Origin: a virus
Lineage: Duplodnaviria; Heunggongvirae; Uroviricota; Caudoviricetes
Length of the DNA stretch: 15,997 nt
Virus record (IMG/VR): IMGVR_UViG_2545824717_000014
Direction: 5' to 3' (one strand)
The notes under the pieces were generated by a model. That model had not been told where the DNA came from and ran no database searches. It saw nothing but the letters and a program-made list of their open reading frames with translations. A program made the translations under genes and the position numbers. Positions 1 through 15,997 of this stretch are shown here, one piece after another; position 1 is the first letter of the stretch, and each line of letters begins with the position of its first letter.

Positions 1-1269
1 ATGCCAAAACTCACAGATATGCAGATCCGCGCATGGATAAAGGCGGGAGACAGATTTGATGGCAAGGCAGACGGCAACGGCCTTTATATTTGCTACCCCA
101 AAAACTACACAGTCCCGTTCTGGCGATTCCGATATAAGCTCGCAGGAAAACAGCGGGCTATGGTTATCGGCTCTTACTCCGAACTGTCACTATCAAAAGC
201 CAGAGAAACAGCAAAAGAGCTGTCAGCCAGAGTTGCTCTTGGCTATGACGTAGCAGCAGAAAAACAGGAACGAAAAGCTGAAGCACTGGCAAAAATGGAG
301 GCTGAGAAAAACGCCATGCGCGTTTCAGATCTGGCCGCCGAATACTTCGAGCGACAGATACTTCCGAGATGGAAACATCCCGATATCCTTCGCCGGAGAA
401 TTGATAAGGATATTAACCCCTGCATTGGGCATATGAAGGTAGAGGACGTTAAGCCACGTCACATTGACGACATGTTAAAAGGTATCGTTGACCGAGGAGC
501 ACCAACGATAGCAACAGATGTATTACGCTGGACACGCCGTATCTTTGACTATGGGATAAAACGCCACGCTCTGGAGATAAACCCTTGTTCAGCGTTTGAA
601 GTATCTGATGCTGGTGGTAAAGAGGTTTCCCGCGACCGTTGGCTAACTCGCGATGAGCTTATCAGGCTATTCGAGGCTATGCGCACCGCAAAAGGATTCA
701 GCCGCCAGAACGAACTGACATTTAAGCTATTGCTGGCACTATGCGTTCGTAAGATGGAGTTATGCGCCGCACGATGGGAAGAGTTTGATTTAGATGGTGC
801 GGTATGGCATTTGCCGGAAGAACGCAGCAAAAACGGAGACCCTATTGATATACCTCTACCTTCCCCAGCCGTTGAATGGTTGAGAGAGCTACACACCTTT
901 TCATGTAATAGCGCATGGGTGCTTCCGGCCAGGAAGATGCAAAACAGAATGATCCCACATATTCAGGAAAGCACTTTACCCGTAGCACTGGCTAAGGTTC
1001 GCGCCGAAATGCCGGATGTGCCTAATTTCACGATTCACGACTTCCGACGCACCGCACGTACTCATTTAGCAGCATTGGGTGTTGATCCTGTCGTGGCGGA
1101 ACGATGCCTCAATCATCGCATTAAGGGCGTAGAGGGGATTTATAACCGTCATCAGTATTTTGATGAGCGTAAAGCAGCACTGGCACAGTGGGCAGATCTG
1201 CTGGTGGCACTGGAAAGCGGGAAAGACTACAACGTAACGCCATTCGATAAAGCCCGGAGGCAAATGTGA
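1..1269 (+). CDS. int: Tyrosine site-specific integrase, P4/CP4-57 (IntA) family, 422 aa
   Basis: Full-length ORF from the first base of the window. N-terminal arm-binding-like region and C-terminal catalytic region with the HDFRRTA (H-x-x-R) box and a Tyr in the GIYNRHQY segment, typical of phage-type tyrosine recombinases. Stop TGA at 1267-1269. Confidence 0.93.
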   Translation: MPKLTDMQIRAWIKAGDRFDGKADGNGLYICYPKNYTVPFWRFRYKLAGKQRAMVIGSYSELSLSKARETAKELSARVALGYDVAAEKQERKAEALAKMEAEKNAMRVSDLAAEYFERQILPRWKHPDILRRRIDKDINPCIGHMKVEDVKPRHIDDMLKGIVDRGAPTIATDVLRWTRRIFDYGIKRHALEINPCSAFEVSDAGGKEVSRDRWLTRDELIRLFEAMRTAKGFSRQNELTFKLLLALCVRKMELCAARWEEFDLDGAVWHLPEERSKNGDPIDIPLPSPAVEWLRELHTFSCNSAWVLPARKMQNRMIPHIQESTLPVALAKVRAEMPDVPNFTIHDFRRTARTHLAALGVDPVVAERCLNHRIKGVEGIYNRHQYFDERKAALAQWADLLVALESGKDYNVTPFDKARRQM

Positions 1270-1916
1270 ACAACATCTTGAGAAAATCGCCAATCGAACG
1301 GCTTTGTTCATCTGTATCGATTACCCCTCATGAAATGGCTGTGGCCTTGGCTGGCCTAAACCCATCTATGCGCATTAGCGATGTGCCTGAGGAAAATTTC
1401 GAATATGTCGATTTTGTCAGAACTCATCTTGCCAGAGCTATCAAGGTGTACAGAGGTGAAAAAACTAGTAAAGATGAGCCTTGCCATGCCCTTGATATTT
1501 TCTTAGCTTCTTACCCATTTATTGACACAAATACACCAGAAATAATTGTTCAGAAAATATCAGAAGCGATTGATGATTTGCGTGGCACCAAGGGCTGGGA
1601 AGAAAAAGCCCGAAACCTTGGAGGACTCCAGTTAGTAAACTACATCAAAGAAACCAACCGCAGCGGACGTGGGCAGCATAGAAAGCAGGATGAGGAAAAC
1701 GGGACAATGAAAATGATGGGGTTGATAGTACATCTGCTGATAAAAAAATCAGGCTCATCTTCCTACATCCAAAATGGGAAACCTAATCGCACAGCTATAT
1801 ACCGTGACATAGAAACCTTAATCAAGGATGAAGGGATATCCCATAAAGGAATAGCAAAAGCCACATTCCTAGAAAAAATCTCACGGGCTTTATTAGCTGT
1901 CCACGATCTCGACTAA
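1266..1916 (+). CDS. Hypothetical protein, 216 aa, GTG start overlapping the integrase stop (alternative ATG at 1335)
   Basis: Long ORF in a different frame immediately after int; GTG at 1266 overlaps the int TGA (ATGTGA). No recognisable motif. Start codon uncertain. Confidence 0.5.
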   Translation: MNNILRKSPIERLCSSVSITPHEMAVALAGLNPSMRISDVPEENFEYVDFVRTHLARAIKVYRGEKTSKDEPCHALDIFLASYPFIDTNTPEIIVQKISEAIDDLRGTKGWEEKARNLGGLQLVNYIKETNRSGRGQHRKQDEENGTMKMMGLIVHLLIKKSGSSSYIQNGKPNRTAIYRDIETLIKDEGISHKGIAKATFLEKISRALLAVHDLD

Positions 1917-2274
1917 TCACTTTTCACGCCCCTCCAAAGCAATGGCGGGGCATTACCTGTTTACCCATCTCCACCAGCATAGATAATTCTATGCCTAGCC
2001 ATTGCTATATCTGTTCGGCTTAGTTCATCTGTAATCACCCCATCTCTAAAAGATACGCCAGCTATCATTAGCCATTTTAAGCCATCATGAGCCATTATAA
2101 ACCGACTCAACCAATTGAATAATAAAAGATAAAAAGAAATGTAAAAACATGATGAATGACGATGAAAGATATAACTCTTTGATAAAACAATGATTTTTTA
2201 AACTGGTAACTAATTGAAAATAAAGAAAATAATTATCCCACCTGCATTTGCAATCTTTCAGTGGATCGGTATTT

Positions 2275-2308
2275 TTTCAATAGATTTATAATTTCTTTCA
2301 ATAGATTC
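2275..2308. promoter_or_regulatory. Direct repeat TTTCAATAGATT x2 (2275-2287 and 2296-2308, 21-bp phasing) in the AT-rich region upstream of the alpA-like operon
   Basis: Two near-identical 12-13-bp copies two helical turns apart inside the 470-bp AT-rich intergenic region 1917-2387; position fits an operator or activator site for the downstream operon. Confidence 0.35.
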
Positions 2309-2387
2309 TAGTCTTAATAGAAATACTGTATGGGCAACCACTAAACTTTAAGTAACTTCATGAGCTATCAGAGAGGTTACTAGAGAC

Positions 2388-2606
2388 ATGACAGTACACA
2401 AGCCAGCATCATCAGCTATCCCAACAACTGGATACATCCGTCGCTTTCGCATGCCGGAATTGCTAGGTGTTTCACTGCCTACTATTGATAGATGGGTTAA
2501 AAATGGCACTCTTCCACGCCCAGTGAAGCTAACAGATAACGTGACTGCGTTTGATGCGGTGGAAATTAATAACTGGCTGGCAGAACGCCGCGGGAAGGTG
2601 GCCTGA
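2388..2606 (+). CDS. alpA: AlpA-family helix-turn-helix regulator/excisionase-like protein, 72 aa
   Basis: Small protein with the AlpA-type pattern (RMPELLGVSLPTIDRWVKNGTLPRPVKL ... EINNWL). It is the first gene after the AT-rich region and is directly followed by a coupled operon, as in P4-like and Gram-negative PICI elements. Confidence 0.8.
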   Translation: MTVHKPASSAIPTTGYIRRFRMPELLGVSLPTIDRWVKNGTLPRPVKLTDNVTAFDAVEINNWLAERRGKVA

Positions 2607-3037
2607 TGGAAAAGAAAAACCGCCCATTACAGGCGGCTAATTCAGATATTCGCGTATCTGATATTACGCCCCTTACAAAATCCCTTCAAGCACCAAAGCG
2701 CACACCGAAAAAGCATCGTGCCCGAGTCTATATGCTGCGTACTGGTATAGAGGGATGGACAGAAAATGACATTCTTCGCTACTGCCGTCTGTCTTCTGGT
2801 CGTAACTATGCAACAGAGTTAGAACGCCAGCTTGGAATCACTCTGGAGCGTATCGACGAAAAGAATCCTGATGGTATCGGAACACACCTTCGCTACCGTT
2901 TCTCCTGCCGTGGTGATGTTCTGAAAGTGATCACTCATGTTAACCATCTTGCGAACATAAATGATCACAACGGACTTTCTCAGCAGGAAATTGCCGACAT
3001 TCTGAAACTCTACCCGGACGCGTTTAACGCCGCCTAA
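2606..3037 (+). CDS. Hypothetical protein, 143 aa
   Basis: ATG at 2606 overlaps the alpA-like stop (TGATG); basic N-terminus; no motif I can assign. Confidence 0.6.
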   Translation: MEKKNRPLQAANSDIRVSDITPLTKSLQAPKRTPKKHRARVYMLRTGIEGWTENDILRYCRLSSGRNYATELERQLGITLERIDEKNPDGIGTHLRYRFSCRGDVLKVITHVNHLANINDHNGLSQQEIADILKLYPDAFNAA

Positions 3038-3049
3038 CGGAGACTAAAA

Positions 3050-3496
3050 ATGAACATCGAAAAAAGCAGATTAATTTCTGAGGCCGCCCCTCATCTGAAC
3101 GCCTCTCTGGGCACAATTAACGGTAATGAATTTGCCGCAATTGTCCCGGTTATTTCTGGTCATATAGGCGGGCGGGAAACCAATATTGTTAGCGCAAAAG
3201 CGTTACACAAAGCGTTGGGCGTGGGAAAAGACTTCTCTACATGGATCACTGATCGCATCTCTGAATATGACTTCACCATTGGGCACGATTACTCAGTCCA
3301 TAAAACAATTTCCCCAAATTTGGGGAAAAGCCCGAATGACGCGGCTTACAGCAAGATTAAGCAGTCTGGCAGACCCGGCAAAGACTATCTGTTAAGTGTC
3401 GGAATGGCGAAAGAACTGGCAATGATCGAACGCAATGATCAGGGTCGCGCTAACGATGCCCGTGCAGAGCTGGTAATTCTTGGTGGTGAAAAATGA
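3050..3496 (+). CDS. Phage antirepressor-like protein (AntA/Rha-type N-terminal domain), 148 aa
   Basis: The segment SAKALHKALGVGKDFSTWITDRISEYDFTIGHDY resembles the N-terminal domain of AntA/Rha/Bro-type phage regulatory proteins. GGAG-like RBS precedes the ATG. Confidence 0.5.
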   Translation: MNIEKSRLISEAAPHLNASLGTINGNEFAAIVPVISGHIGGRETNIVSAKALHKALGVGKDFSTWITDRISEYDFTIGHDYSVHKTISPNLGKSPNDAAYSKIKQSGRPGKDYLLSVGMAKELAMIERNDQGRANDARAELVILGGEK

Positions 3497-3756
3497 ATAT
3501 CAACTTAATTTATCGTCATCCGTGTGAGCTGGAAATTGAATCATTGCTGGGGCGCGAAGAGCCATATCCAGACACATTCACTCCCGCAGATTGCGCGACT
3601 GAACGGCTTACCAGAGCGCGCACAGGTCTGGTTCATGTGATGAATGAGATTATTCCCTCGGTGGGAGGGGAACAGGCGACAGTAATCAATAGCTGGCTAC
3701 AAAAAGTTACCTCCCTGATAGATATCAGTTTAATCGATGTGGAGAGTGCGAAATGA
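3493..3756 (+). CDS. Hypothetical protein, 87 aa
   Basis: ATGA start/stop overlap with the upstream gene (translational coupling); no recognisable motif. Confidence 0.5.
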   Translation: MNINLIYRHPCELEIESLLGREEPYPDTFTPADCATERLTRARTGLVHVMNEIIPSVGGEQATVINSWLQKVTSLIDISLIDVESAK

Positions 3757-3974
3757 CCAACATCCAGCTCATTGAAGCGCAATGTCGCATCGAACAGGTT
3801 CAGACTGTTTTAGGGTTCTGGCTTGAAGGGGCCAGCCCAAGCAACAGAGACAAGTTAATGATTGGCGCGGTTATGTCACTGCTCAATGGCGTACCAGAAG
3901 CTATTCAGGAAGCGGACGAATTGTTGGGCAAATATGAGTTACAGAATCATTCAGGCGAGGCGAAACATGAATAA
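3753..3974 (+). CDS. Hypothetical protein, 73 aa
   Basis: ATGA overlap with the upstream gene; no recognisable motif. Confidence 0.5.
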   Translation: MTNIQLIEAQCRIEQVQTVLGFWLEGASPSNRDKLMIGAVMSLLNGVPEAIQEADELLGKYELQNHSGEAKHE

Positions 3975-4569
3975 TTTCTTAACTTTCCATGCAGAAGCAA
4001 CGCCTGGCGGCGTAAACATCATGTACCGCAGCAACGATGGCATGACAGAACGCGTTGAGGCCGTCTCATATATTGATGCCGTAAATCGTCTGGATGCCGG
4101 GGATTATGACGATAAACCAGATGAAGGTATGTCAATACATCTCGCTATTGCCGATGGCGGCAACCAGGGATATTTCGATTACACATCACAGCATAACGTC
4201 ATTATGTGGAGATGGCTGATCGCAACAGTATTCATGCTGGAAATGAGAGAGGAAAACGGCACCGTCAGCATTATTGATGACAATGGCAATCATTCCGTGG
4301 TTTCTGTTTATTCCAATGGCATCGTCGCCATGCCGCTGTATCCAGTAGCAGAGCGCCTCGCTATGGCAAACAACATTGAGGGCGCAATGATCGAGAAATA
4401 TGGTGTTGATGTCGGAACAAAGAATGCCATCATTTTTTACAGCAACATGTTCGATGTCGAACAGGGAACACTCACTTCGTTTGGGCGAGAAGTGCTTGCC
4501 GATCTTCACAACAGCTTTATTGCCGAACTAAACGAAAACGGCATCCCAGAAGCACCAGTGACGCACTAA
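3967..4569 (+). CDS. Hypothetical protein, 200 aa
   Basis: Start placed at ATG 3967 (MNNFLTF...), which overlaps the previous stop by 8 nt, rather than at the upstream in-frame ATG 3862 that runs through the preceding gene. No motif recognised. Confidence 0.55.
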   Translation: MNNFLTFHAEATPGGVNIMYRSNDGMTERVEAVSYIDAVNRLDAGDYDDKPDEGMSIHLAIADGGNQGYFDYTSQHNVIMWRWLIATVFMLEMREENGTVSIIDDNGNHSVVSVYSNGIVAMPLYPVAERLAMANNIEGAMIEKYGVDVGTKNAIIFYSNMFDVEQGTLTSFGREVLADLHNSFIAELNENGIPEAPVTH

Positions 4570-4581
4570 ACGGGGGCCAGA

Positions 4582-6933
4582 ATGCGAAACATTGATCTTA
4601 TCCGTCAGGTTATCAGTGCGTCTGAAAACAACTGGCCTCATGTGCTGGACTGCCTGAACATAAATGTCCCTGACTCTCCGCGCCGTCATGCTCCCTGCCC
4701 TGCATGTGGGGGCAAAGATCGATTCCGGTTCGATGACAACGGGCGCGGTAGCTTCATCTGTAATCAGTGCGGCGCTGGTGATGGGCTGGATTTAATTAAA
4801 CGCGTAAATAACTGCGACACAACAGAGGCGGCGCTTCTTGCCGCTGATGTTCTGGGTATTGATTACCGGACAACGGAAACACCAGAAGCCACCAGCCAGA
4901 AACGGGAACAACTGGAAACCGAGCGCCAGCGACGCGAACAGGAGCGCCTGAAAAGGGCAGAGAAGGACGAACAACAAAGACGGGATACGTTTTCCCGTCA
5001 GTTTGATGACATGCGCAGAAAGGCTGTAAACGGCAAATCTGATTATCTGGTTGCGAAAGGGGTAGGTGATTTTACATTCCCTGTGTTGCCCGATGGATCT
5101 CTGTTGCTGGCGCTGGTGGATAAATCCGGCGCAGTCACAGCAGCACAGACTATTACCTCACATGGTGAAAAAAGACTCCTGACAGGTTCAGCAAAGCGAG
5201 GGGCATATCACGCCATAAACGCACAGAAACGACCTCACAGCATCATAATTGCTGAGGGGGTGGCTACCGCCCTGTCGTGCCATTTAATTCGCCCTGACGC
5301 AATGACAGTGGCAGCAATCGACGCTGGCAACCTGTTGCCAGTAGCGGAAGTCATGCGCAGAACATATCCACAGGCACAAATCATCATTGCCGCAGATAAC
5401 GATCACCAGCAAGGAAACTCCGAAAGTGGAGGGATCAACACGGGGAAAGATGCCGCAGAGAGGGCCGCTATTTCCGTAGCTGGCTGGGTGTCTCTGCCAC
5501 CGACTGACTATAAAGCCGACTGGAACGACTATCACCAACAACACGGGCTGGCGGCAGCCACAGCAGCATTTAAAGATTCGATGTACCAGCCACGGGGGAA
5601 AGGGGCGCAGGTGAAAAATCACAAACAGTCAGTCGGGGCGCTGAATGAGATCAGTTCTGGCGAGGTGTTAAGCGATGATGAAATTGCTGTCCTCGAAGAA
5701 ATCAACCGGACGTTTACGCATGTCACCATCGGCGGGAAACACAAGGTGGTGTCGCTAAAGCCTTCTCAAACCGGCGGTGTATCGCACGTTTTCGAGGATT
5801 TATCACAATTTCAGCATTATTTTCATCATAAACCGAGAGTCGCCAGAAAGCTGGCGGGATCGGCGTGGCTGTCATGGAGTGGGAAGAACTACAAGCCAGG
5901 AGGCGTAGGATTTTATCCAGTACCAGACAAATGCCCTGACGATGTTTTTAATCTGTATGAGGGGCTGGCACTGGAACCAATTGAAGGAGATTGCACGGTA
6001 TACCTTAATCACCTGTTGCAGGTTGTCTGTGCCGGTAATGAAGAGGCATACCAATATCTTATCCAGTGGATGGCGCACATTATCCAAAAGCCTGATGAAA
6101 AACCGTCCGTGGCAATCGTGATGAAATCTGTCCCGGGCACAGGGAAAGGCACAACGGTTAAACCGCTGCTGCAAATACTGGGGCAGTACGCCGCCCACAT
6201 TAACGGGGCGGGACATATTTCAGGGCGCTTCAATTCAATACTTGCTAACAAGCTACTGGTATTTGCTGACGAAGTGACGATCCACAAGCCGTCTGAAGCT
6301 GACAGACTTAAAGCGATTATTAGCGAACCGACGTTTAACCTTGAGCGCAAGGGAATTGATGCTGAACCAATGCCGAATTTTGCCCGGTTGATATTTGCCA
6401 GTAACAGCACACAGGTATTACAGGCAGGGATAAGAGAGCGCCGCTATCTCGTGCTTGAGCCATCTCCTGAAAAAGCACAGAGCCGGGAGTATTTTGATCG
6501 GCTGTACAGTTGGCTTAATGATGGCGGTGCCGCAAAGTTGCTTTGGCATCTTAAAGGGGTGGATCTCTCAGGTTTTGACCCTCAACGAGCGCCACAGACC
6601 GATGCCTTACGTGAAGAAATCTTGCTGGGGCTGTCTGGCGTTGAATTGTTTCTTTATGGCGAGCTAATCAATGAACCTCCGTTTAATGGCGAAGTCCGTT
6701 TGTTTGCAAAGGATATGGTTAGTCGATTTGTAGCGTGGTCGCTTGAGCGTGGGGAAAAGCTTAAAGAACCAGCTGCCAGATCACTACTGGGTAAATCACT
6801 TGCACAAATGGGGCTGGTGAAGCATGGAAGACCAGACCGAGGGAATGGCGTGTTCTACGAACTACCAGAGGTCGGAGTTCTACAGGCTGCGTTTGCCCGT
6901 CTGATCGGTATGGGGGGTTATGATGTTTTTTAA
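4582..6933 (+). CDS. Primase-helicase, P4 alpha-like (zinc-ribbon + TOPRIM primase + P-loop NTPase), 783 aa
   Basis: N-terminal CPAC...CNQC zinc ribbon; TOPRIM motifs (IIIAEGVATA with the conserved Glu, IIIAADNDH DxD box); C-terminal P-loop-like VPGTGKGT and Walker B LLVFADEV. Size and architecture match satellite/plasmid primase-helicases (P4 alpha is of similar length). Confidence 0.9.
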   Translation: MRNIDLIRQVISASENNWPHVLDCLNINVPDSPRRHAPCPACGGKDRFRFDDNGRGSFICNQCGAGDGLDLIKRVNNCDTTEAALLAADVLGIDYRTTETPEATSQKREQLETERQRREQERLKRAEKDEQQRRDTFSRQFDDMRRKAVNGKSDYLVAKGVGDFTFPVLPDGSLLLALVDKSGAVTAAQTITSHGEKRLLTGSAKRGAYHAINAQKRPHSIIIAEGVATALSCHLIRPDAMTVAAIDAGNLLPVAEVMRRTYPQAQIIIAADNDHQQGNSESGGINTGKDAAERAAISVAGWVSLPPTDYKADWNDYHQQHGLAAATAAFKDSMYQPRGKGAQVKNHKQSVGALNEISSGEVLSDDEIAVLEEINRTFTHVTIGGKHKVVSLKPSQTGGVSHVFEDLSQFQHYFHHKPRVARKLAGSAWLSWSGKNYKPGGVGFYPVPDKCPDDVFNLYEGLALEPIEGDCTVYLNHLLQVVCAGNEEAYQYLIQWMAHIIQKPDEKPSVAIVMKSVPGTGKGTTVKPLLQILGQYAAHINGAGHISGRFNSILANKLLVFADEVTIHKPSEADRLKAIISEPTFNLERKGIDAEPMPNFARLIFASNSTQVLQAGIRERRYLVLEPSPEKAQSREYFDRLYSWLNDGGAAKLLWHLKGVDLSGFDPQRAPQTDALREEILLGLSGVELFLYGELINEPPFNGEVRLFAKDMVSRFVAWSLERGEKLKEPAARSLLGKSLAQMGLVKHGRPDRGNGVFYELPEVGVLQAAFARLIGMGGYDVF

Positions 6934-8176: not shown

Positions 8177-8670
8177 CAAAAACAGCGATTTTCTTTATAA
8201 GGTATGTTTTGCTCATCTGGCAGACGGAGGTATTCGCTGCGGTTTGGCACATAGCCCAGAACAGCAAAGAGTTTTACGAGACTTTTGTAAAATCCAGTGT
8301 ACAAGGGCGTGACGTTTTTGAAGGTGAGCACTACGAAATTTTCGTAGTTCAAAAAATAGCCTCTGAGATGTTGTTATGCCTGTTCAGCAAACCATCCGCA
8401 TAGCTGATCGCGAATCAAATTACCAATGGAGCCAGAAGCAAGGGCAGAACTGGAAAGCGCCTGCCGTGAAGAGTAATGCGACTCCATAAATATAGTTTTT
8501 AGAGTCCATAAAAAAACTGTCAAAACCTGACATACAGAACGATGCCACCAGCTACTGAACGGTGGCATTTTTTTGTGCTATTTGTTTCATATTTTGCAAT
8601 CACAATGATGAATGTTGCGTTTTATGAAACTATAATGACTGTTGTTTTATACAGTTCTAAGGGGGGCGTT

Positions 8671-8844
8671 ATGGCTATTTCAGTAAAGCCAGTATTGATA
8701 AGTGAGAAGCAAATGGAAGCGATAAAGAAAATTCAGGAGGAGCAGCGTAAAAAATCAGAGGTAGGAGTTGCGCCAACGATCCACGAAATTGCTCGGGGAT
8801 TAATGGATAAGGCGCTGGCTTACACTTTAACTGGACGTGGGTAA
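8671..8844 (+). CDS. Small protein, 57 aa, possible ribbon-helix-helix DNA-binding protein; first gene of the cargo operon
   Basis: Start chosen at ATG 8671, preceded by the G-rich RBS AAGGGGGG; a -10-like TATAAT lies ~40 bp upstream. The pattern ISVKPVLISEKQMEAIKKI ... IHEIARGLMDKAL is compatible with an RHH fold (weak, by eye). Stop is directly adjacent to the next gene. Confidence 0.45.
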   Translation: MAISVKPVLISEKQMEAIKKIQEEQRKKSEVGVAPTIHEIARGLMDKALAYTLTGRG

Positions 8845-8848
8845 ATTT

Positions 8849-10192
8849 ATGGCTACGTGGCAACAGGGTATTAATTCTGGTGGTTTTCTGGCTGGCATCG
8901 GTGCGCAAAATGAGAATGCGCCAAAGGCAAGCGACATTAACGCAACGCTTGGTCTGATCCGCGAAAACAATGAACTGGCTCCCTCAGGTGCAAATAACGT
9001 TGCTCTGACAGGTCTTCGTGGTCTGGCTGGAGTTGCTGACATTTATAAGCAGCAGCAACAGCAGGAACGTAAAGCGGCATTCCAGAAAGGTTATGCAGAT
9101 GCTTATGCGTCCGGTGACAGGGAGCAGATGCGTAATCTTATTACAGCATTCCCAGAAGAGTTTGAGGAAGTCCGTAAAGGGATGAGTTATGTCGATGATG
9201 CTCAAAGGGATGATTATGGCAATCTGGCGCTCAAAGCACAGGTAGCCTCATCGCTTGGTCAGGGCGCATTTGGCAGGTTCATGATGGATAATGAGCAGGA
9301 GATGCGTCGTTTAGGTATCCCTCCAGAAACTATTGCTGAAATGCAGGTTAATGACCCGCAGGGCTTCCAGCATTTCGCAGGTAATCTGGCGCTGTTTTCT
9401 CTCGGTCATGAGAAGTATTTCGATATCAAAGATCAAATGGAAGGTCGTCGACTTGAGCAAGGGCGACTGGATGAAAGTATGCGTCAGGCTGACATGGAGA
9501 ACGCGAGAGGATGGGCAAATATCCAGAACGCTCAACTAGACAGGGCTCAGCGAGCACAAATTCACTCAGATGAGATGGGATTGAAGCTAATGGAGCTGGG
9601 GCAAAAAGGTAAGCCGTCAGCAGACTTAATTAAGGGATTAAATTCTGACATTACCAATTTTGGCAAAAATTATAACTCTGTCAGAGCGGCGGCAAACTCT
9701 CTGCAAGCCCTTAGCAAGGTAAATACTGGCGCTGCCCAACTTGGGATTATCTTCAACTACATGAAATCTCTTGACCCGCAGTCAGTCGTTCGTGAAGGCG
9801 AACAGGTTCAGGTAATGCGGTCTGATGGCATATGGGGACAAATCAAAGGATACATAGACCAGCTTAATGCTGGAAACGGCCTGTCGCAGGAGGCAAAGGA
9901 TAACATTGTTAACGCCGCAAAAATCAACGCCAATGCTATGGGGCAGCAGTTTAACCAGCAGGTTGACGAGTATCTCGATACATATGGAGAAACTATTCCT
10001 CAGGGGCTAAGAAAAAGCCTTGAAAGAAGGAAAGCGAAGCTATTTGACGATGTTTCCGGGCAGCCTACATCACAGGCTGGCACTGGACAGGCAAAAGCGG
10101 CAACCGGAGGAATATCAGAAGGCGCAACGGCAACCAACCCTAAAACTGGTCAGAAAATCATTTACAGGAACGGAAAATGGCAGCAAATGTAA
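8849..10192 (+). CDS. Hypothetical protein, 447 aa, Q/A/N/G-rich and predicted largely helical; no recognisable catalytic motif (alternative GTG start at 8837)
   Basis: Long ORF whose 3' end overlaps the next gene by 16 nt. Contains a short poly-Gln run (KQQQQQERK) and many amphipathic-looking segments. Confidence 0.7.
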   Translation: MATWQQGINSGGFLAGIGAQNENAPKASDINATLGLIRENNELAPSGANNVALTGLRGLAGVADIYKQQQQQERKAAFQKGYADAYASGDREQMRNLITAFPEEFEEVRKGMSYVDDAQRDDYGNLALKAQVASSLGQGAFGRFMMDNEQEMRRLGIPPETIAEMQVNDPQGFQHFAGNLALFSLGHEKYFDIKDQMEGRRLEQGRLDESMRQADMENARGWANIQNAQLDRAQRAQIHSDEMGLKLMELGQKGKPSADLIKGLNSDITNFGKNYNSVRAAANSLQALSKVNTGAAQLGIIFNYMKSLDPQSVVREGEQVQVMRSDGIWGQIKGYIDQLNAGNGLSQEAKDNIVNAAKINANAMGQQFNQQVDEYLDTYGETIPQGLRKSLERRKAKLFDDVSGQPTSQAGTGQAKAATGGISEGATATNPKTGQKIIYRNGKWQQM

Positions 10193-12294
10193 TCTTACCG
10201 GAAGGTTTTGTGCTCGATGAACAACCTGATAACTCACAGTTTCCTGATAGTTCACAGCTTCCTGATGGTTTTGTGCTTGATGCCCAACCAGAACAGCAGC
10301 AATCACCTTTGGTTTCACCAGAGGAAAATTCCAGACAGGAAAATGTTGTTAATAATGCTAACGGTTTCGACCGTTTTATGTATGGCGTTCTCAGTGGATT
10401 GATGGATGTTGGTAAAGGTGTTGGCCTGTTTCAGGATATGACACCAGAAGAGCAAGCCGCAATTCAGTCTCTACAGCAGAAGTTAGCGGCAAAACCATCA
10501 ACCGCACAAGATGTTGGTGAGTTCGTTGGACAAGCAGCGCCATTTGTTAGTGGTGGTGGGATTATTTCTCAGGTTCCCAAAGGGGCGGCAAGACTGGCTG
10601 CCGCCGCAGGGCTTGGTGCTGGAGAAGGGGCTATTGTAGCCAATGGAACAAATAGCGATGTTGCTTCCGGCGCTGCTATTGGCGCTGTGGCTGGCCCTGT
10701 AGCCGAACTTGCTGGCCCTGCAATTAATAAAATAGCTGGGAAATTAACCAAGAAGAATGTTTCTTCGATTCCAGATATTGAGGGGATTACTCCTGCCGAA
10801 GAGAAAATTCGTAAGTTATCTGCACAAGGCAACCCAAATCTTGCCTCTTCGCTTGAAGGGCTAGATCTAAAACCTCAGAAAGAAATTGTTGAGGCTGCAA
10901 ATAGGCTTCATGTTGATTCAGTTCTTCCTTCTCATTTATCAGGAAATGAGCAATACCAAGCTGTAGAGCAAGCCCTAAAGTCACGGACAGGATCAGCGTT
11001 AAAAGCTCAAGAAGATAAAGCAATAAGCGAATTAGCCTCTAGTGCTGGCAAGATAATCGATGATGTTGCTGGTGCGCCAGATGCGTTAGCTATGAGCGAA
11101 AAATATATTTATCAGATAAATAGTAGAATGGAAGCACTAAAAAACCGTAGTGATCAGTTATATAAACGTGTTGATTCCGCTCTATCACCAAGAACAAAAG
11201 TCGAAGCAAATAACACAAGCACTATGCTGGAAAAAATCGCTGATGATTTAGGAGGGTGGGATAATCTTGACCCAATAGAAAAGCGAGTTTTTACAGCAAT
11301 AAACCCCGGCCCAGATAGCATCCTAACGTATGCAAATTTAAACAGGCAAAGGCGTTTAGTTGGTGATGCCCTAAATAAAAAGCAGGGGCCATACAAAGAT
11401 GCTGATAAAGAAGCGCTATCAAGACTATATGGAGCTTTAGCTGAAGACCAAAAATCTGTCTTATCCAATACTGGATACTTGCGAGATTTCGAAGTCGCAC
11501 AACGCCTTGTAGCTATGAGAAAAAACTTAGAAAGGCAAATGGTAAATCTTCGCGGGAAAACACTTAATGGGGATATAGCGTATAAAGTAACGAATTCTCT
11601 TCAATCTATGGCAAAAGGTGATGCGAGAGGGTTTCGTGAGATTATGCAAAATACTCCATCAAGAACATTGCGAAGGGAGCTAGTAGGAACAGCATTAAGA
11701 GATATGCTTTCCTCTGGGAAGCGTGGGGCCGACTTTAATCCATCTGGCTTCGCAGATTGGTGGCAAAACTTGCAACACAGTGGACAGCTAAAGACTTTGG
11801 CTGAACATTTGCCAAAAGAAACAATGAGCGGACTATATGATGTATACAAAGTTGCCAGAGCAATAAAAAATGCTAAAGCGCATGAAATATCTACTGGTAA
11901 GCTGAATGAGTTTGTAAACAGATTTAATCGGGTAACAGCTCCATACGAACTAGCAGCAAAACACATTCAAAAAATAGGCACGATGGTAGGCGCTCATTTT
12001 GGATCGCTTGGAGCCATTGCTGGGGCTGATATTGGAGCAAGATTGGCGAGTAAAGCTCGATTAGCTGGTGGAGCAGGGGCGGCTGATGCTGCGGATAAAT
12101 TAATTGCCTCGCCAGCCTTCCAGAGCGCAGTAAAAAATCTACACGGAAAAGCGCCTGGGCACATTGTTGATTCACGTATCAGGCGCTCCCCTCAATGGAA
12201 GAGTTTTTTTAACTCTCTTCCTGAACAGGAAAAACGGACCATCGCCAGACTGGGCATCATTACTTGGCTATCTAATGATCCAGATAATGACTAG
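10177..12294 (+). CDS. Hypothetical protein, 705 aa, with N-terminal tandem repeat (PEGFVLDEQP / PDGFVLDAQP) and Gly/Ala-rich hydrophobic segments near both ends
   Basis: ATG with AGGA RBS ~9 nt upstream; start overlaps the stop of the 447-aa gene. G/A-rich stretches (AAAAGLGAGEGAIVANG...AIGAVAGPVAELAGPAI; IGTMVGAHFGSLGAIAGADIGARL...AGGAGAA). No P-loop, nuclease or protease motif identified by eye. Confidence 0.75.
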   Translation: MAANVILPEGFVLDEQPDNSQFPDSSQLPDGFVLDAQPEQQQSPLVSPEENSRQENVVNNANGFDRFMYGVLSGLMDVGKGVGLFQDMTPEEQAAIQSLQQKLAAKPSTAQDVGEFVGQAAPFVSGGGIISQVPKGAARLAAAAGLGAGEGAIVANGTNSDVASGAAIGAVAGPVAELAGPAINKIAGKLTKKNVSSIPDIEGITPAEEKIRKLSAQGNPNLASSLEGLDLKPQKEIVEAANRLHVDSVLPSHLSGNEQYQAVEQALKSRTGSALKAQEDKAISELASSAGKIIDDVAGAPDALAMSEKYIYQINSRMEALKNRSDQLYKRVDSALSPRTKVEANNTSTMLEKIADDLGGWDNLDPIEKRVFTAINPGPDSILTYANLNRQRRLVGDALNKKQGPYKDADKEALSRLYGALAEDQKSVLSNTGYLRDFEVAQRLVAMRKNLERQMVNLRGKTLNGDIAYKVTNSLQSMAKGDARGFREIMQNTPSRTLRRELVGTALRDMLSSGKRGADFNPSGFADWWQNLQHSGQLKTLAEHLPKETMSGLYDVYKVARAIKNAKAHEISTGKLNEFVNRFNRVTAPYELAAKHIQKIGTMVGAHFGSLGAIAGADIGARLASKARLAGGAGAADAADKLIASPAFQSAVKNLHGKAPGHIVDSRIRRSPQWKSFFNSLPEQEKRTIARLGIITWLSNDPDND

Positions 12295-12313
12295 TGAATG
12301 GCCACGGATGGCC

Positions 12314-12739
12314 TCAATCTTTATTCTTTGAAATAGAGTCATTGATCTTTTCGAAACACCAATGAAATCCACAAAAGAGAGCTACACCAATATAACAATA
12401 CAAAACTATCAACCACCTTTCAGTGTCCGAAGGGTAAAAAACATCAATTACATAAGCAACACCAATTGGTATTAATGCTAGTAATAACATCGACACAGGA
12501 CGTACAAACTTCTGAACTATATCAATTTTATAGAACCACAAGGCGGTATGTTTAATGATATAAGTAAAGATGGCTGCGCCAATAATGGCAAAAAACACCA
12601 TCGATAAAGTCGGGTATAACTTTGCGACAATTAAACCCAACAAAATAATTATAACTGCCTGCCCCCTCACACCAACCCTCCCTTTAGCTTTGTTTAGAAT
12701 GGCAATCATCATATATCCAAGACATGGCATTTGGTACAT
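12314..12739 (-). CDS. Small integral membrane protein, up to 141 aa, about 4 predicted TM helices; convergent on the 705-aa gene
   Basis: Four hydrophobic ~20-residue segments (AVIIILLGLIVAKLY, SMVFFAIIGAAIFTYII, SMLLLALIPIGVAYVIDVF, WLIVLYCYIGVALFCGF). Its stop lies 19 bp from the stop of the 705-aa gene on the other strand. Start codon uncertain (several in-frame ATGs, no strong RBS). Confidence 0.6.
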   Translation of the reverse strand: MYQMPCLGYMMIAILNKAKGRVGVRGQAVIIILLGLIVAKLYPTLSMVFFAIIGAAIFTYIIKHTALWFYKIDIVQKFVRPVSMLLLALIPIGVAYVIDVFYPSDTERWLIVLYCYIGVALFCGFHWCFEKINDSISKNKD

Positions 12740-12857
12740 AGCTTGGGTCGGGATTTCAAATCCGCTCCCCGTTGATGGGGCCGTTACAGTACGCGCATAT
12801 CCGCTTTATGTGAAACAGGAAGATTTTTCTGATATCACTGCCACAGCAAAACACCAA

Positions 12858-12936
12858 TTTCGTGACCAGTACGCGCGCGAGGTGTATCAGTTGCAAAATT
12901 TTTTGCAGCTGTGTCCGACCAGTACGCACGCGATGG
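12858..12936. repeat. Two copies of a ~25-bp motif with an alternating CG core (TTTCGTGACCAGTACGCGCGCGAGG at 12858-12882; degenerate copy GTGTCCGACCAGTACGCACGCGATGG at 12911-12936)
   Basis: Read directly from the sequence; located in a ~450-bp stretch without convincing ORFs. Confidence 0.6.
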
Positions 12937-13142
12937 CGGGGAGCACCATAAAACTGTTCTCTACATAAGACAGAGTGGTGGTGATGTGTTGATTATCGGC
13001 GTATATGCGCACAGGACGCGCTATGACGATGTTTTATGCGGGTACACCAATCACATGTATCTGGTGTGATAAATCGCGTTACATGACCTCTCATGTTGTG
13101 CTGGTGGTTATCACGACGTTCTGAATCTGGCCTTTGCCTGAT

Positions 13143-13169
13143 ATTTTGCGACAAGTACGCGCGCGTAGC
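13143..13169. repeat. Third copy of the motif (ATTTTGCGACAAGTACGCGCGCGTAGC), containing the perfect palindrome TACGCGCGCGTA
   Basis: Read directly from the sequence. Confidence 0.6.
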
Positions 13170-13193
13170 ATCGACAGCATACACATTGGATAT

Positions 13194-13394
13194 TCATTTT
13201 GTGACCAATGCGATAAGTAGCGGGATAAGAATTGATAAAATCAACAGGACGATGATCCACTTCTGATTCTCGTCCATCTTATCTGCTAGGCGACGCTCCA
13301 TTCCGTGCATATCACCGCGAATGGCAATCATCTCATTGCGAACATCCGAGAAGTGGTTGGCTTGATGTTCAATGTGTGGCGTTCTGCCTTTCAT
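13194..13394 (-). CDS. Small tail-anchored membrane protein, 66 aa (hydrophilic N-terminus, single C-terminal TM helix)
   Basis: GAGG RBS upstream of the ATG on the minus strand; C-terminal WIIVLLILSILIPLLIALV hydrophobic helix. Architecture recalls XhlA-type or holin-like small membrane proteins (by eye only). Confidence 0.55.
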   Translation of the reverse strand: MKGRTPHIEHQANHFSDVRNEMIAIRGDMHGMERRLADKMDENQKWIIVLLILSILIPLLIALVTK

Positions 13395-13473
13395 TCCTGA
13401 TCCTCACCTATCGTCACCACCTGCTGGTGTATAAAGGTATTGGCCCAAGCAGCTTTCTAATGGGCACTCATGT

Positions 13474-13929
13474 TTATACGCTGACCTTACAATCAATCAC
13501 CGCTTTTAACTTTTCAGCATTGCTTCCCTGACGCTTCCACGCGCTGTAAATATCTTTATCCCACGCTTTACCAGCTTTTGTTTGATAGCCTGCTTCATTG
13601 ATCCGTTCAGCTATCACACGCCCATTATCAAATCCCTGTCGGATGGTATCGGCAATGATCTTTATAACTGCCGTTTCGTTATATGGCTTTGGTGGGATGT
13701 TCGGCTTTCCGGCAATAAGCGACGCAGCGGCTTTTTCCATGCGCTCCACCAGCCCAAGCATTCGTGAATCAATAGACTTTTCCGGCTGTCCCAGCTTCAT
13801 GCGAATCGCATCAACAAGCCAGGAGGTTTTATCCCCTCCAGAAGCGAGAACAGACCGATTAAACTCATCCTGCAATTCAGATGGGATGCGGAACGCGACC
13901 AGATTAGATTTGCTCATTGCAAAGACCAT
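13474..13929 (-). CDS. Putative ribbon-helix-helix DNA-binding regulator, 151 aa (alternative start at 13917); no RBS, possibly leaderless
   Basis: N-terminal LVAFRIPSELQDEFNRSV...TSWLVDAIRMKL fits a beta-strand/helix/helix RHH (Arc/CopG-like) pattern. Divergent from the PerC-like gene across a palindrome/iteron-rich region. Confidence 0.55.
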   Translation of the reverse strand: MVFAMSKSNLVAFRIPSELQDEFNRSVLASGGDKTSWLVDAIRMKLGQPEKSIDSRMLGLVERMEKAAASLIAGKPNIPPKPYNETAVIKIIADTIRQGFDNGRVIAERINEAGYQTKAGKAWDKDIYSAWKRQGSNAEKLKAVIDCKVSV

Positions 13930-13946
13930 ATCAGTGAGTAATATCC

Positions 13947-13978
13947 ATACAGTATACCACTGTATAACACTGTTATAC
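13947..13978. promoter_or_regulatory. Overlapping palindromes ATACAGT-N5-ACTGTAT (13947-13965) and GTATAACA-C-TGTTATAC (13962-13978); operator-like
   Basis: Perfect inverted repeats read directly from the sequence, located just upstream (minus-strand sense) of the RHH-like gene start. Confidence 0.5.
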
Positions 13979-14030
13979 GCTCAAATATCAACCAGAAAAT
14001 AACGGACCAATCACAAAGCTATCGCTGTGT

Positions 14031-14152
14031 TGTTGGTTCAGAGCTGGACTGTGTTGGTTCAAAATGAGTTGATGTTGGTTCAATATTTCTGAAAAAACAC
14101 AATAAAAACAACGATCTTTACAAATTGAACCAACTGAACCAACTGAACCAAC
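14031..14152. repeat. Iteron array: TGTTGGTTCA x3 direct at 21-bp phasing (14031-14040, 14052-14061, 14073-14082), AT-rich spacer, then TGAACCAAC x3 in tight tandem on the opposite orientation (14126-14152)
   Basis: Read directly from the sequence; lies directly upstream of a -10-like TATATAAT (14168-14175) and the PerC-like gene. Confidence 0.75.
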
Positions 14153-14188
14153 ACCTTTTTGCTTATCTATATAATCTGAGAGGCAGAA

Positions 14189-14476
14189 ATGATAAGGGAC
14201 AGGAAAGCTGAAGAGCTGGAGTCAAAAGGGCTATACCGGAGAGCTGCCGCACGATGGGCAGAAGTCATGATGCTGGCAGATGGCGATAAAGAACGTGAAC
14301 ATGCAGCAAACAGACGCTCTGAATGTATCCGTAAGGCGGCACGCCAACCAGCAACTACAGACAGATTCGGAGATTTAAGACAGGCAGTTAAGCGGACTCA
14401 TTCGGCTCTTGGTATGGATGAGGAAGCGAGAGGGTACTTCAGGCGTTATCGCGATAAAGATTGCCAGAGACAGTAA
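14189..14476 (+). CDS. PerC-family transcriptional activator-like protein, 95 aa
   Basis: N-terminal KAEELESKGLYRRAAARWAEVM matches the conserved PerC/Pch-type signature as I recall it; GAGAGG RBS upstream. Confidence 0.65.
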   Translation: MIRDRKAEELESKGLYRRAAARWAEVMMLADGDKEREHAANRRSECIRKAARQPATTDRFGDLRQAVKRTHSALGMDEEARGYFRRYRDKDCQRQ

Positions 14477-14750
14477 TGCTCTCTCTGTTTTGGCAAATTA
14501 CCCCTCACTTTGAAGGGATCGGAGCTATAAAAATGGTGTTATCCGGCTTCCTCAAATTTAGGTTTTCGAAAGAATCAATGGGTTAGGTCATCGTGCAAAT
14601 TTGCACTCTGCCAGCCAACGCAATTTCTCGTTGGCGGAAATATCAGGTATTTACTGAACGAACGGTCTACCAGTCTGTTCAGTTACCAGTTGCACATGGC
14701 TGTTTCATGTGAGAACGGAGGTTTTTTCGGACATCGCTATTGGGTACAGC

Positions 14751-14778
14751 AATTTCACGAGCAATACGCGCGCGCAGG
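14751..14778. repeat. Fourth copy of the ~25-bp CG-core motif (AATTTCACGAGCAATACGCGCGCGCAGG)
   Basis: Read directly from the sequence; ~230 bp upstream of the intrinsic terminator that precedes dinD. Confidence 0.55.
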
Positions 14779-14987
14779 ACAACAAGCCTGAACATGGTTA
14801 CACACCTCGAGCCTGAGGGATGTAGGCAATGGCTTCTGACCAAAGCACCCGAAAAAACCGTGTACATAAGGGTGTACATAATCAAAAATCGCATTAGAAA
14901 GAAACCAGCCACAATGCGGCATTGAAGCCAACACTCTACAAACAGATTCAGACTCGTAACACTAATTCTTACTTTTCAGCCTTCACA

Positions 14988-15023
14988 AATGCCGCCCACT
15001 CAAACAGAGCGGCATTTTTCTTC
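14988..15023 (+). terminator. Rho-independent terminator (stem AAATGCCGC / GCGGCATTT, 13-nt loop, followed by a T-rich tail TTTTTCTT)
   Basis: Stem arms at 14990-14996 and 15010-15016 with flanking A/T extension and a T-tract at 15016-15023, all on the + strand. Confidence 0.6.
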
Positions 15024-15109
15024 CCCGCAACTTCAATTCTGTTTTGCGTGCCTGCTCCAGATTTTGCGATGTTTTTTTGCCCAGCACACTGAGAACGTGA
15101 GATACTCAC

Positions 15110-15129
15110 AACTGTATATAAATACAGTT
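15110..15129. promoter_or_regulatory. LexA (SOS) box AACTGTATATAAATACAGTT overlapping the dinD promoter
   Basis: Perfect CTGT-N8-ACAG palindrome with an AT-rich centre, ~45 bp upstream of the dinD start; matches the LexA consensus. Confidence 0.85.
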
Positions 15130-15172
15130 ACAGATTTACTTTCTTTGCAATCGATATCACATGGAGTGGGCA

Positions 15173-15997
15173 ATGAACGAACATCATCAACCTTTTGAAG
15201 AAATACGGCATTATGGCACTGAAGGGCAAGAATTTTGGTCAGCTAGAGAATTGGCACCGTTACTGGATTATCGGGACTGGCGCAATTTTCAAAAGGTACT
15301 GGCCCGCGCGACTCAAGCGTGCGAAGCCAGCAATCAAGCTGCATCTGACCATTTCGTTGAAACCACCAAAATGGTTGTATTAGGTTCAGGGGCTCAACGA
15401 GAACTTGAAGATGTTCATCTCTCCCGCTATGCCTGTTACCTGGTAGTACAAAACGGCGACCCTGCGAAACCGGTTATTGCGGCAGGGCAAACTTATTTTG
15501 CTATCCAGACCCGACGGCAGGAGCTGGCTGACGATGAAGCTTTCAGGCAACTTCGTGAAGACGAAAAGCGTCTTTTTCTGAGAAATGAATTGAAAGAACA
15601 TAACAAACAATTGGTTGAGGCAGCGCAGCAAGCTGGGGGAGCGACAGCTATCGATTTCGCCATATTTCAGAATCATGGTTACCGGGGGCTGTATGGTGGA
15701 TTAGATCAGAAAGCTATTCATCAGCGGAAGGGGCTGAAAAAGAATCAGAAGATCCTGGATCATATGGGTTCAACAGAACTGGCGGCTAATCTCTTTCGAG
15801 CTACCCAAACAGAAGAAAAACTCAAGCGGGATGGCGTGAATTCAAAACAGCAAGCAAACACCACACACTTTGACGTGGGTCGCAAGGTGAGGCAAACCAT
15901 TCAGGAACTTGGCGGAACCATGCCTGAGGAGTTGCCGACCCCGCAGGTCAGCATCAAGCAGTTGGAAAACAGTGTAAAAATTACAGAGAAGAAATAG
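15173..15997 (+). CDS. dinD: DNA-damage-inducible protein D (Bro-N-like domain protein), 274 aa
   Basis: Start at ATG 15173 (MNEHHQPFEEIRHYGTEGQEFW...) with a GGAG RBS; the upstream in-frame ATG 15161 lacks an RBS. Sequence and length match E. coli DinD as I recall it, and the upstream LexA box fits an SOS gene. Stop TAG at 15995-15997. Confidence 0.85.
   Translation: MNEHHQPFEEIRHYGTEGQEFWSARELAPLLDYRDWRNFQKVLARATQACEASNQAASDHFVETTKMVVLGSGAQRELEDVHLSRYACYLVVQNGDPAKPVIAAGQTYFAIQTRRQELADDEAFRQLREDEKRLFLRNELKEHNKQLVEAAQQAGGATAIDFAIFQNHGYRGLYGGLDQKAIHQRKGLKKNQKILDHMGSTELAANLFRATQTEEKLKRDGVNSKQQANTTHFDVGRKVRQTIQELGGTMPEELPTPQVSIKQLENSVKITEKK

Follow-up and report, generated by a model that had tools for sequence, protein, structure and literature searches.

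Motif copies in an Escherichia coli island derive from an Sf6-type small-terminase gene and may mimic a helper phage packaging signal

Why should a short motif with an alternating CG core occur four times, always in the same orientation, in the non-coding DNA near one end of a chromosomal island? The question is raised by IMG/VR record IMGVR_UViG_2545824717_000014, a stretch of 15,997 nucleotides (nt) classified in Caudoviricetes and hereafter called the window, which corresponds to a chromosomal island of Escherichia coli located between yicC and dinD (NZ_CP024232 matches bases 12300-15200 with 100% identity). A first-pass annotation, made from the sequence alone, had taken the copies for possible attachment (att) scars of successive integrations or for module boundaries. 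We found that the motif originates from the small-terminase gene (terS) of Sf6-type phages, within which the same stretch is a cis-acting DNA element. Our preferred reading, to which we assign a probability of about 0.45, is that the copies are stand-alone packaging-initiation (pac)-type elements of about 21-25 base pairs (bp), (GAG) TTT NNN GAS MAR TAC GCG (CGCG), with which a terminase-less satellite would mimic the packaging signal of its helper phage.

Exact matches to TTTYRYGASMARTACGCGCGCG are found at 12858-12879 (copy 1, TTTCGTGACCAGTACGCGCGCG, codons F R D Q Y A R), 13144-13165 (copy 3, TTTTGCGACAAGTACGCGCGCG) and 14753-14774 (copy 4, TTTCACGAGCAATACGCGCGCG, codons F H E Q Y A R), all on the plus strand, and none of 200 shuffled sequences gave a match. 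When one mismatch is allowed, TACGCGCGCG has six matches for 0.59 expected. Copy 2, also on the plus strand, is degenerate (12911-12932, GTGTCCGACCAGTACGCACGCG); it lacks the TTT and was placed in register by GACCAGTACGCACGCGA at 12917-12933. No copy beyond these four was detected in the whole window with up to three mismatches. The matches bear out the four co-oriented copies of the first-pass annotation, whose positions for copies 3 and 4 (13143 and 14751) were off by one and two bases, as well as its view that they lie in DNA without convincing open reading frames (ORFs): no coding sequence of the RefSeq annotation crosses any of them, and the ORFs over the copies match no Pfam or NCBIfam family. 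All copies point in the same direction as the gene flow of the island. Copies 1 and 2 do come after the cargo operon, which encodes gp20- and gp16-like proteins and is followed by a minus-strand membrane-protein gene (12314-12739), and copies 3 and 4 indeed bracket a module (13194-14476) made of genes for proteins of 66 and 151 amino acids (aa), iterons and a PerC gene. The 12-bp palindrome described in copy 3 is perfect (TACGCGCGCGTA, 13156-13167). When copies 1 and 4 were aligned with their flanks, the similarity reached about 55 nt upstream of the motif. A Chi site (GCTGGTGG) is present at 13100-13107, 37 nt 5' of copy 3. A RelE/ParE toxin was considered for the ORF after copy 2 and rejected for want of a family match.

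Read in frame, the copies give FRDQYAR, (S)DQYAR, FCDKYAR and FHEQYAR, and their codons differ at third positions. The signature F-x-D/E-Q/K-Y-A-R(-A) is that of Sf6-type small terminases (TerS), and the alternating (CG)4 tract represents the codons TAC GCG CGC GCG (Y-A-R-A). As a fallback, the first-pass annotation had evoked a protein-binding or structural role for this tract. Its Z-DNA propensity is a by-product of the Y-A-R-A codons, and only the protein-binding part is retained, the small terminase being the probable binder. A scan of IMG/VR with the motif yielded at least 120 loci, most of which (GC content 37-68%) have it in frame within ORFs of 155-175 aa that follow the pattern GRPS.Y..ELA..IC......SLR.IC....MP...TVFRWL....F.DQYARARE.QAD...RLRVDARKW...KYGDK, and the motif DNA was found in terS ORFs of more than 80 viral contigs. 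In Sf6, Sf101, mEp021 and phages of Pseudomonas, Ralstonia and Flavobacterium, the members recovered by tblastn bear the annotation terminase small subunit. Sf6 gp1 reads ...STVFRWLAKHEDFRDKYAKATEARAD..., and the DNA of Sf6 gene 1 holds ATTTTCGCGACAAGTACGCG. Within nt 163-183 of this gene, copy 1 is identical at 16 of 18 positions (nt 165-183; 0 of 300 shuffles reached the score) and copy 3 at 19 of 20, with one gap, to the ATTTTCGCGACAAGTACGCG of the Sf6 and Kapi1 terS genes (no shuffle reached the score). The codons upstream of copy 1, 'AKHQ', resemble 'AKHED' of Sf6 gp1. As for copy 4, the terS of viral contig L182 contains the identical 25-mer. Genes of the L182 type are rare in E. coli (four genomes, 76% identity), which leaves the idea that each copy matches the allele of a resident helper unproven, and it was abandoned.

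The island departs from Sf6 and Kapi1 in having the short element only, without an intact terS, and in its Y-A-R where Sf6 has Y-A-K. A functional terS, namely an ORF of about 140-175 aa that has a helix-turn-helix at its N-terminus, the motif and a RLRVDARKW..KYGDK core, was not found in the island, which has the motif codons only. Pfam and NCBIfam searches identified no island protein with a TerS-type fold or domain, and Pfam and profile searches of the window revealed no terminase or capsid gene. Sequences selected by the motif make a TerS profile circular over the motif itself. The six-frame search of the window was therefore repeated after removal of the motif columns, and it then detected nothing upstream of any copy. 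The best match of that profile, a marginal one (5.6 bits, independent E-value 0.005 in the six-frame search space), is a putative relic of the TerS C-terminal core on the plus strand at 12941-13027, in the frame of copy 2 (EHHKTVLYIRQSGGDVLIIGVYAHRTRYD, to be compared with RLRVDARKW..KYGDK).

Is the motif conserved in terS genes for the peptide or for the DNA? To avoid ascertainment bias, 65 unique terS genes were sampled by degenerate peptide patterns, 57 of them being reachable only via another part of the protein. At the motif, Tyr is encoded by TAC in 64 genes and by TAT in one, versus 94 and 86 occurrences in the rest of the same ORFs (Fisher p 7e-14). Similarly, Asp is GAC 38 times and never GAT, versus 388 and 436 (p 1e-12), Ala is GCG 50 times and another codon 7 times, versus 293 and 868 (p 7e-22), and Phe is TTT 53 times and TTC 10 times, versus 67 and 121 (p 1e-11). 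The restricted set of 57 genes gave ratios of 56:1 for TAC, 35:0 for GAC, 43:5 for GCG and 46:9 for TTT. On either side of the motif, synonymous entropy per column is close to its maximum. Kinship among terS genes inflates the p-values, but it cannot account for the freezing of these codons only. As the synonymous sites are frozen and their flanks free, (GAG) TTT NNN GAC CAR TAC GCG is under selection as nucleic acid, and the stretch is a cis-acting DNA element within terS. The island copies behave in the same manner. The first 18 nt of copy 3, picked by its flanks only, are invariant in 19 loci of E. coli islands. Among islands, the substitutions in copies 1, 3 and 4 are limited to positions at which terS genes vary freely as well, i.e. 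codon 2, the C/A of CAG/AAG, GCG to GCA and the CG run; for copy 1, the differences are confined to codon 2 and the C/A of CAG/AAG. Copy 2 decays further in other genomes (TAT, CAC).

The element within terS is most plausibly the pac site, which is the only established cis element inside the terS gene of P22-like phages, although the constraint by itself is not specific to pac. The pac site of P22 is a 22-bp sequence inside terS (gene 3), and its definition rests mainly on genetic evidence. The motif resembles it as a short asymmetric DNA signal within terS, and the ejection genes of the island come from the same phage group (P22-like, Lederbergvirus). It differs in sequence, P22 gp3 having no detectable homology to Sf6-type TerS, and the island element lies outside any terS gene and is present in four copies. 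In 2013, Leavitt et al. reportedly located the Sf6 pac in the segment of gene 1 coding for the DNA-binding domain.

We infer that TerS recognises the motif and that the island is packaged in helper capsids. In such a scheme, a helper phage would induce the island, which would excise and replicate. The TerS/TerL complex of the helper would bind one of the co-oriented motif copies and cut nearby, and headful filling of the capsids would proceed rightwards across the att junction. Copy 2 would then be a decayed duplicate. Satellites with packaging signals of their helpers are known, including P4 with the cohesive-end (cos) site of P2, the cos-type Staphylococcus aureus pathogenicity island (SaPI) SaPIbov5, the E. 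coli phage-inducible chromosomal island (PICI) EcCICFT073, and SaPIs whose pac is in the SaPI terS. Like these, the island is a satellite with integrase, AlpA and primase genes that would bear the helper's signal, so that the helper terminase would package satellite DNA. However, the known cases are cos sites or satellite-encoded TerS proteins, whereas that of the island would be a bare pac element taken from a helper terS, present as several alleles and, it seems, recurring in satellites from many phyla. In the literature that we searched, we found no description of a bare pac-type element from a helper terS, in several alleles, reused by satellites across phyla.

The identity of the helper is suggested by the P22-like ejection (DNA transfer) genes, gp20-like and gp16-like, on the plus strand at 8837-12294 (Pfam Inj_translocase), which point circumstantially to a P22-like phage. 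The gp20-like protein is 74.5% identical at the aa level to its counterpart in the Lederbergvirus Kapi1, with which the island shares its ejection genes, and positions 8848-10697 of the window have 84-89% nt identity to Kapi1. The TerS of Kapi1 is identical to Sf6 gp1. In the 39.4-kb Kapi1 genome, the sole match to the motif with up to three mismatches lies inside terS, at 18881.

Ejection-protein genes (window 8542-12294) are an unusual cargo for a PICI/P4-like satellite. This cargo might alter the DNA-delivery conduit of the helper virion or serve to evade SieA-type exclusion, the targets of which are gp16 and gp20.

We compared variants of the same island (loci L004, L125, L126 and L127) and related islands near ykgL/pao (L002 and L003). 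The block that holds copies 1-3 ends at 13174, 9 nt past copy 3, in about 500 genomes. In L004 and L127 (41EC2 and strain 042), homology stops at 14774, the last base of copy 4, and resumes at 14844, a 1.75-kb Doc-toxin module sitting between these positions. In L125 (AHM8C212RI), copy 4 has a 254-aa gene as its left neighbour instead, and homology sets in again at 14750, 3 nt short of the copy. In L126 (18SZHZ655Rt), copies 1 and 2 are fused into one and the intervening 53 bp are absent. In the related islands, the regulator/iteron/PerC module has copy 3 on one side and, right after PerC, a very similar copy of 55 nt on the other. This is the only module bracketed by two copies; the Doc module and the 254-aa gene module each adjoin a single copy rather than a pair. 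The copies mark edges of variable segments, and as a description the term module boundaries, proposed at first pass, is justified by the homology breaks at 13174, 14774 and 14750. Breakpoints at the copies are expected if these are retained functional sites: pac copies, origin and att must stay in place and their surroundings can be swapped or lost, so that the copies look like fixed posts at the edges of variable modules.

The segment between copy 4 and the probable arm sites, at 14775-14843, is a variable cargo slot. Nearly empty in the window, it is occupied in strains 41EC2 and 042 by a Doc-family toxin gene and a 337-aa gene. Strain 18SZHZ655Rt has an Abi-family gene where the window has the 66-aa gene, after copy 3. 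Genomes in which copies 1 and 2 form a single copy (L126 1600-1900, to be compared with window 12570-13069) have an unbroken ORF across it (...VTVRAYPLYVKQEDFSDITATAKHQFRDKYAHDGGEYHKTVLYISQSGGDVLIIGVYAHRTRYDNVLCGYTNHMYLV). It has 42 database relatives, all hypothetical proteins of E. coli or Salmonella without domains, and one of them is chimeric with a DUF4222 N-terminus. This chimeric protein (P0034) prompted the idea of a DUF4222 relic, which was dropped after the terS match and has no Pfam support.

Stand-alone copies are also found in other bacteria. In Serratia (L056), TTTTGCGACAAGTACGCGCGCG is followed at once by iterons of the window type and then dinD. In Leclercia (L073), gp7/gp20/gp16-like genes are followed by an opposite-strand ORF, the block GGAAGGTTTTTCGGTGATCACT and then the exact 22-mer of copy 1. 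Across E. coli, Serratia and Leclercia the motif is identical at 22 of 22 positions, amid unrelated flanks. In satellites of the Neisseria and Pasteurellaceae types, the order is integrase, motif, primase, helicase, motif and iterons. A scan of bacterial genomes gave 124 instances, 19 of which are in terS-like ORFs, while a few represent chance coding in sigma-54 activators. Many of the others, found in Acidobacteria, Alpha-, Beta- and Gammaproteobacteria, Planctomycetes and others, are isolated and have flanks that are unrelated, and 16 of the approximately 100 non-terS loci have a P4-type integrase or primase within 8 kb. The isolated copies consistently end just past the Y-A-R(-A/E) codons. 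A much broader proposal can be formulated, which we regard as tentative and, taken whole, rather doubtful: the Sf6-type TerS family, which is known from phages of many bacterial phyla, may use one self-encoded, near-universal packaging signal, GAG TTT NNN GAC CAR TAC GCG (E-F-x-D-Q-Y-A), that integrase/primase satellites across Proteobacteria and beyond would have copied into non-coding DNA as a 22-30-bp cassette, often in several alleles each, so as to be packaged by any such helper. Such pac mimicry would be a general strategy for which a satellite requires no terminase, and the yicC-dinD island, with three live copies and P22-like ejection proteins that it has borrowed, would be one example.

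Among the scan loci (L005-L124, e.g. L041, L108, L123, L033, L066 and L088), some copies are tandem-doubled. Others (e.g. L041, L108 and L123) are followed by their own inverted copy, which generates 35-40-bp palindromes such as TTTCGGACAAATACGCGCGCGCGCGTACTTGTGCCGAAA. In another virus record (L154, IMGVR_UViG_2843675664_000001, 2057-2078), the motif is in frame inside a 930-aa P4-alpha-like primase ORF (...VAKHFRDQYARATLIIAADND...), a third type of context beside terS genes and non-coding DNA.

Several observations weigh against a role of the copies as pac sites. In published in-vitro work, TerS binds pac DNA weakly and without specificity. Satellites with stand-alone copies such as L172 and L205 have their own, unrelated Terminase_2-type TerS and no obvious need for the site, and in satellites of this type the copies flank the replication module or the origin, for which a pac function gives no explanation. 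Four copies in 2 kb exceed what pac requires. Searches of the region and its flanks against the phage collection, by tblastn and blastn, gave no match. The P22 pac could be placed by eye at the homologous codons, but hhalign gave this alignment a probability of 0.2%, and it was discarded. Finally, ordinary gene debris is also present in the region. A 60-bp fragment of a phage antirepressor gene on the plus strand at 14528-14587, between PerC and copy 4, is 92% identical to Kapi1 13227-13286 (nin region), which indicates past recombination with P22-like or lambdoid phages.

The copies might accordingly be of the same nature, i.e. non-functional debris of 5' terS fragments gained by recombination with P22-like or lambdoid phages and doubling as recombination microhomology. 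The stretch is the longest run of near-identity among divergent terS genes, and RecA or RecT/Red-type crossovers would leave copies at module junctions. This is the next explanation in order of plausibility, possible though distinctly less probable than pac mimicry. The breakpoints exactly at or in the motif and the collapse of copies 1 and 2 in L126 are what repeat recombination would give. The faint terS-like relic beside copy 2, a frameshifted 'IYRWW...FLEQYARE' in L205, the visible decay of copy 2 and the nearby antirepressor fragment all speak of debris, and Kapi1 encodes a RecT recombinase, while the Chi site at 13100 is just 5' of copy 3. Boundary or linker sequences are also known at module junctions of mosaic lambdoid phages (Susskind-Botstein model; HK620/P22-type genomes), and they too are short conserved sequences located exactly where homology between relatives breaks. 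However, those are usually gene-end sequences of one phage group, whereas the motif is a piece of a conserved gene, constrained as DNA and found across phyla. Neutral debris is not expected to give the pattern that we observed. The motif is intact although no terS similarity is left upstream of any copy once the motif columns are removed, which means that the flanks have decayed or were never terS. It is fully conserved in three genera amid unrelated flanks, its substitutions avoid the positions constrained in terS, and the isolated copies that keep turning up in integrase/primase islands of different phyla are always cut at one and the same point.

Alternatively, the copies may be an interaction site with no part in island packaging, for instance a decoy that titrates TerS against helper packaging, an infection sensor, an origin-associated site or an RNA element, and the constraint within terS would reflect that other function. 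We consider this unlikely, about half as credible as debris. The constraint indeed demonstrates a cis function of some kind, not which one. In several satellites the copies adjoin iterons or the replication module, those with their own Terminase_2-type TerS keep a copy, and in L041, L108 and L123 the motif forms a long palindrome with its inverted copy. On the other hand, pac has no established competitor inside terS of P22-like phages, the island encodes no detected TerS-like protein, and no Rfam family overlaps the copies; searches with Rfam covariance models gave only sub-threshold microRNA noise, over the iterons.

As for integration scars, the island has ends of its own. Its left junction is at the yicC stop codon and its right one at 14943-14952 (plus strand), a 10-bp CAGATTCAGA that is a direct repeat of the yicC 3' end; CAGATTCAGA is present at both junctions (L001 1683 and window 14943), and homology to K-12 picks up again at 14953. 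The left junction has no copy of the motif, and the right one is at least 170 bp away from any copy, copy 4 lying about 170 bp inside it. With all four copies internal to the island and a separate repeat at its junctions, the motif is unrelated to the island att sequence. The first-pass annotation had suggested that one copy might be the native target and had itself named an empty site devoid of it as evidence to the contrary; the empty yicC-dinD spacer of K-12 MG1655 (220 bp) contains no CGCGCG and no CG motif. Of 5426 complete E. coli genomes, 558 have a 40-mer around copy 3, which occurs at 1-5 places per genome and never on plasmids. Together with the K-12 spacer, this indicates that the motif is neither a native target nor a dispersed repeat akin to repetitive extragenic palindromic (REP) or enterobacterial repetitive intergenic consensus (ERIC) sequences, the other possibility that had been raised. 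Co-oriented direct repeats that bracket a module without a recombinase are reminiscent of att accretion in cis-mobilizable elements (CIMEs) and integrative and conjugative elements (ICEs), but the motif is not at the island ends. That the copies are att cores duplicated by successive site-specific integrations, the region right of about 12800 being a remnant of separate elements, is therefore largely refuted and highly improbable, even though same-orientation repeats bracket the PerC/iteron module both here and in L002/L003 and occupied and empty states are both known for the 53 bp that separate copies 1 and 2: the junctions use another sequence, the gene search of the window found a single integrase and no second recombinase gene, the Doc and 254-aa gene modules lie next to one copy instead of between two, and there is no reason for an island att core to be a conserved terS coding segment of unrelated phages.

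An earlier candidate for the att core, CGTGTACATA..GGTGTACATAAT, was rejected, since the junction lies at 14943-14952 according to the empty site of K-12, and the rejected repeats are now considered probable arm sites. The corresponding pair, GTGTACATA-N3-GTGTACATA, is on the plus strand at 14860-14882, and a matching pair is found just 5' of int at the left end (L001 1812-1832). Such pairs inside both ends are probably arm-type sites of the integrase.

Even on a conservative view, what looked like a 'CG repeat' is part of a phage terminase gene and no integration scar, and the true ends of the island and its empty site are now defined. If the copies do act as pac sites, they would define a concrete pac sequence for a very large family of terminases in which DNA recognition has been refractory to biochemistry, and they would provide a simple sequence marker for terminase-less satellites and for the prediction of helpers across many phyla. 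They would also explain the spread of a PICI-like island with P22-type ejection genes, and they would be predictable start points for the phage-mediated (lateral) transfer of chromosomal neighbours such as dinD.

The satellite backbone, on the plus strand at 1-6933 of the window according to Pfam matches, comprises genes for a P4-type tyrosine integrase with an arm DNA-binding domain (1-1269; Phage_integrase, Arm-DNA-bind_3), AlpA (2388-2606; Phage_AlpA), an AntA-domain protein (3050-3496) and a primase-helicase (4582-6933; Zn_Ribbon_Prim/Toprim/DUF5906). With integrase, AlpA, primase-replicase and a probable iteron origin, and with no capsid or terminase gene detected, the island has the features of a PICI/P4-like phage satellite. 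The gene for the PerC-family regulator (14189-14476, plus strand; PF06069, E 1e-32) is directly preceded by the iterons (14031-14152), which consist of three TGTTGGTTCA in 21-bp phase, an AT-rich spacer and three inverted TGAACCAAC. Located between copies 3 and 4, they are probably the replication origin of the island.

A second conserved block accompanies some of the copies. It is found 5' of copy 1 (GGAAGATTTTTCTGATATCACT, 12818-12839, plus strand), with paralogues in Leclercia L073 and 14 nt 5' of copy 4 (GGAGGTTTTTTCGGACATCGCT, 14717-14738, plus strand), the latter identified when the flanks of copy 4 were aligned with those of copy 1. A distance of 14-18 nt separates the consensus, GGARGDTTTTTCKGWBATCRCT, from the motif on its 3' side, for copies 1 and 4 as well as in Leclercia. 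The core of the consensus, AAGATTTTTCTG, matches the P22 pac consensus AAGATTTATCTG at 11 of 12 positions, a statistically weak resemblance when taken alone, and it fits the published pseudo-pac expression save at one position. The P22-pac-like 12-mer at 12820 was discarded as evidence owing to these weak statistics. Beyond the right junction, a LexA box (CTGTATATAAATACAG) is present at 15112-15127, in the dinD promoter.

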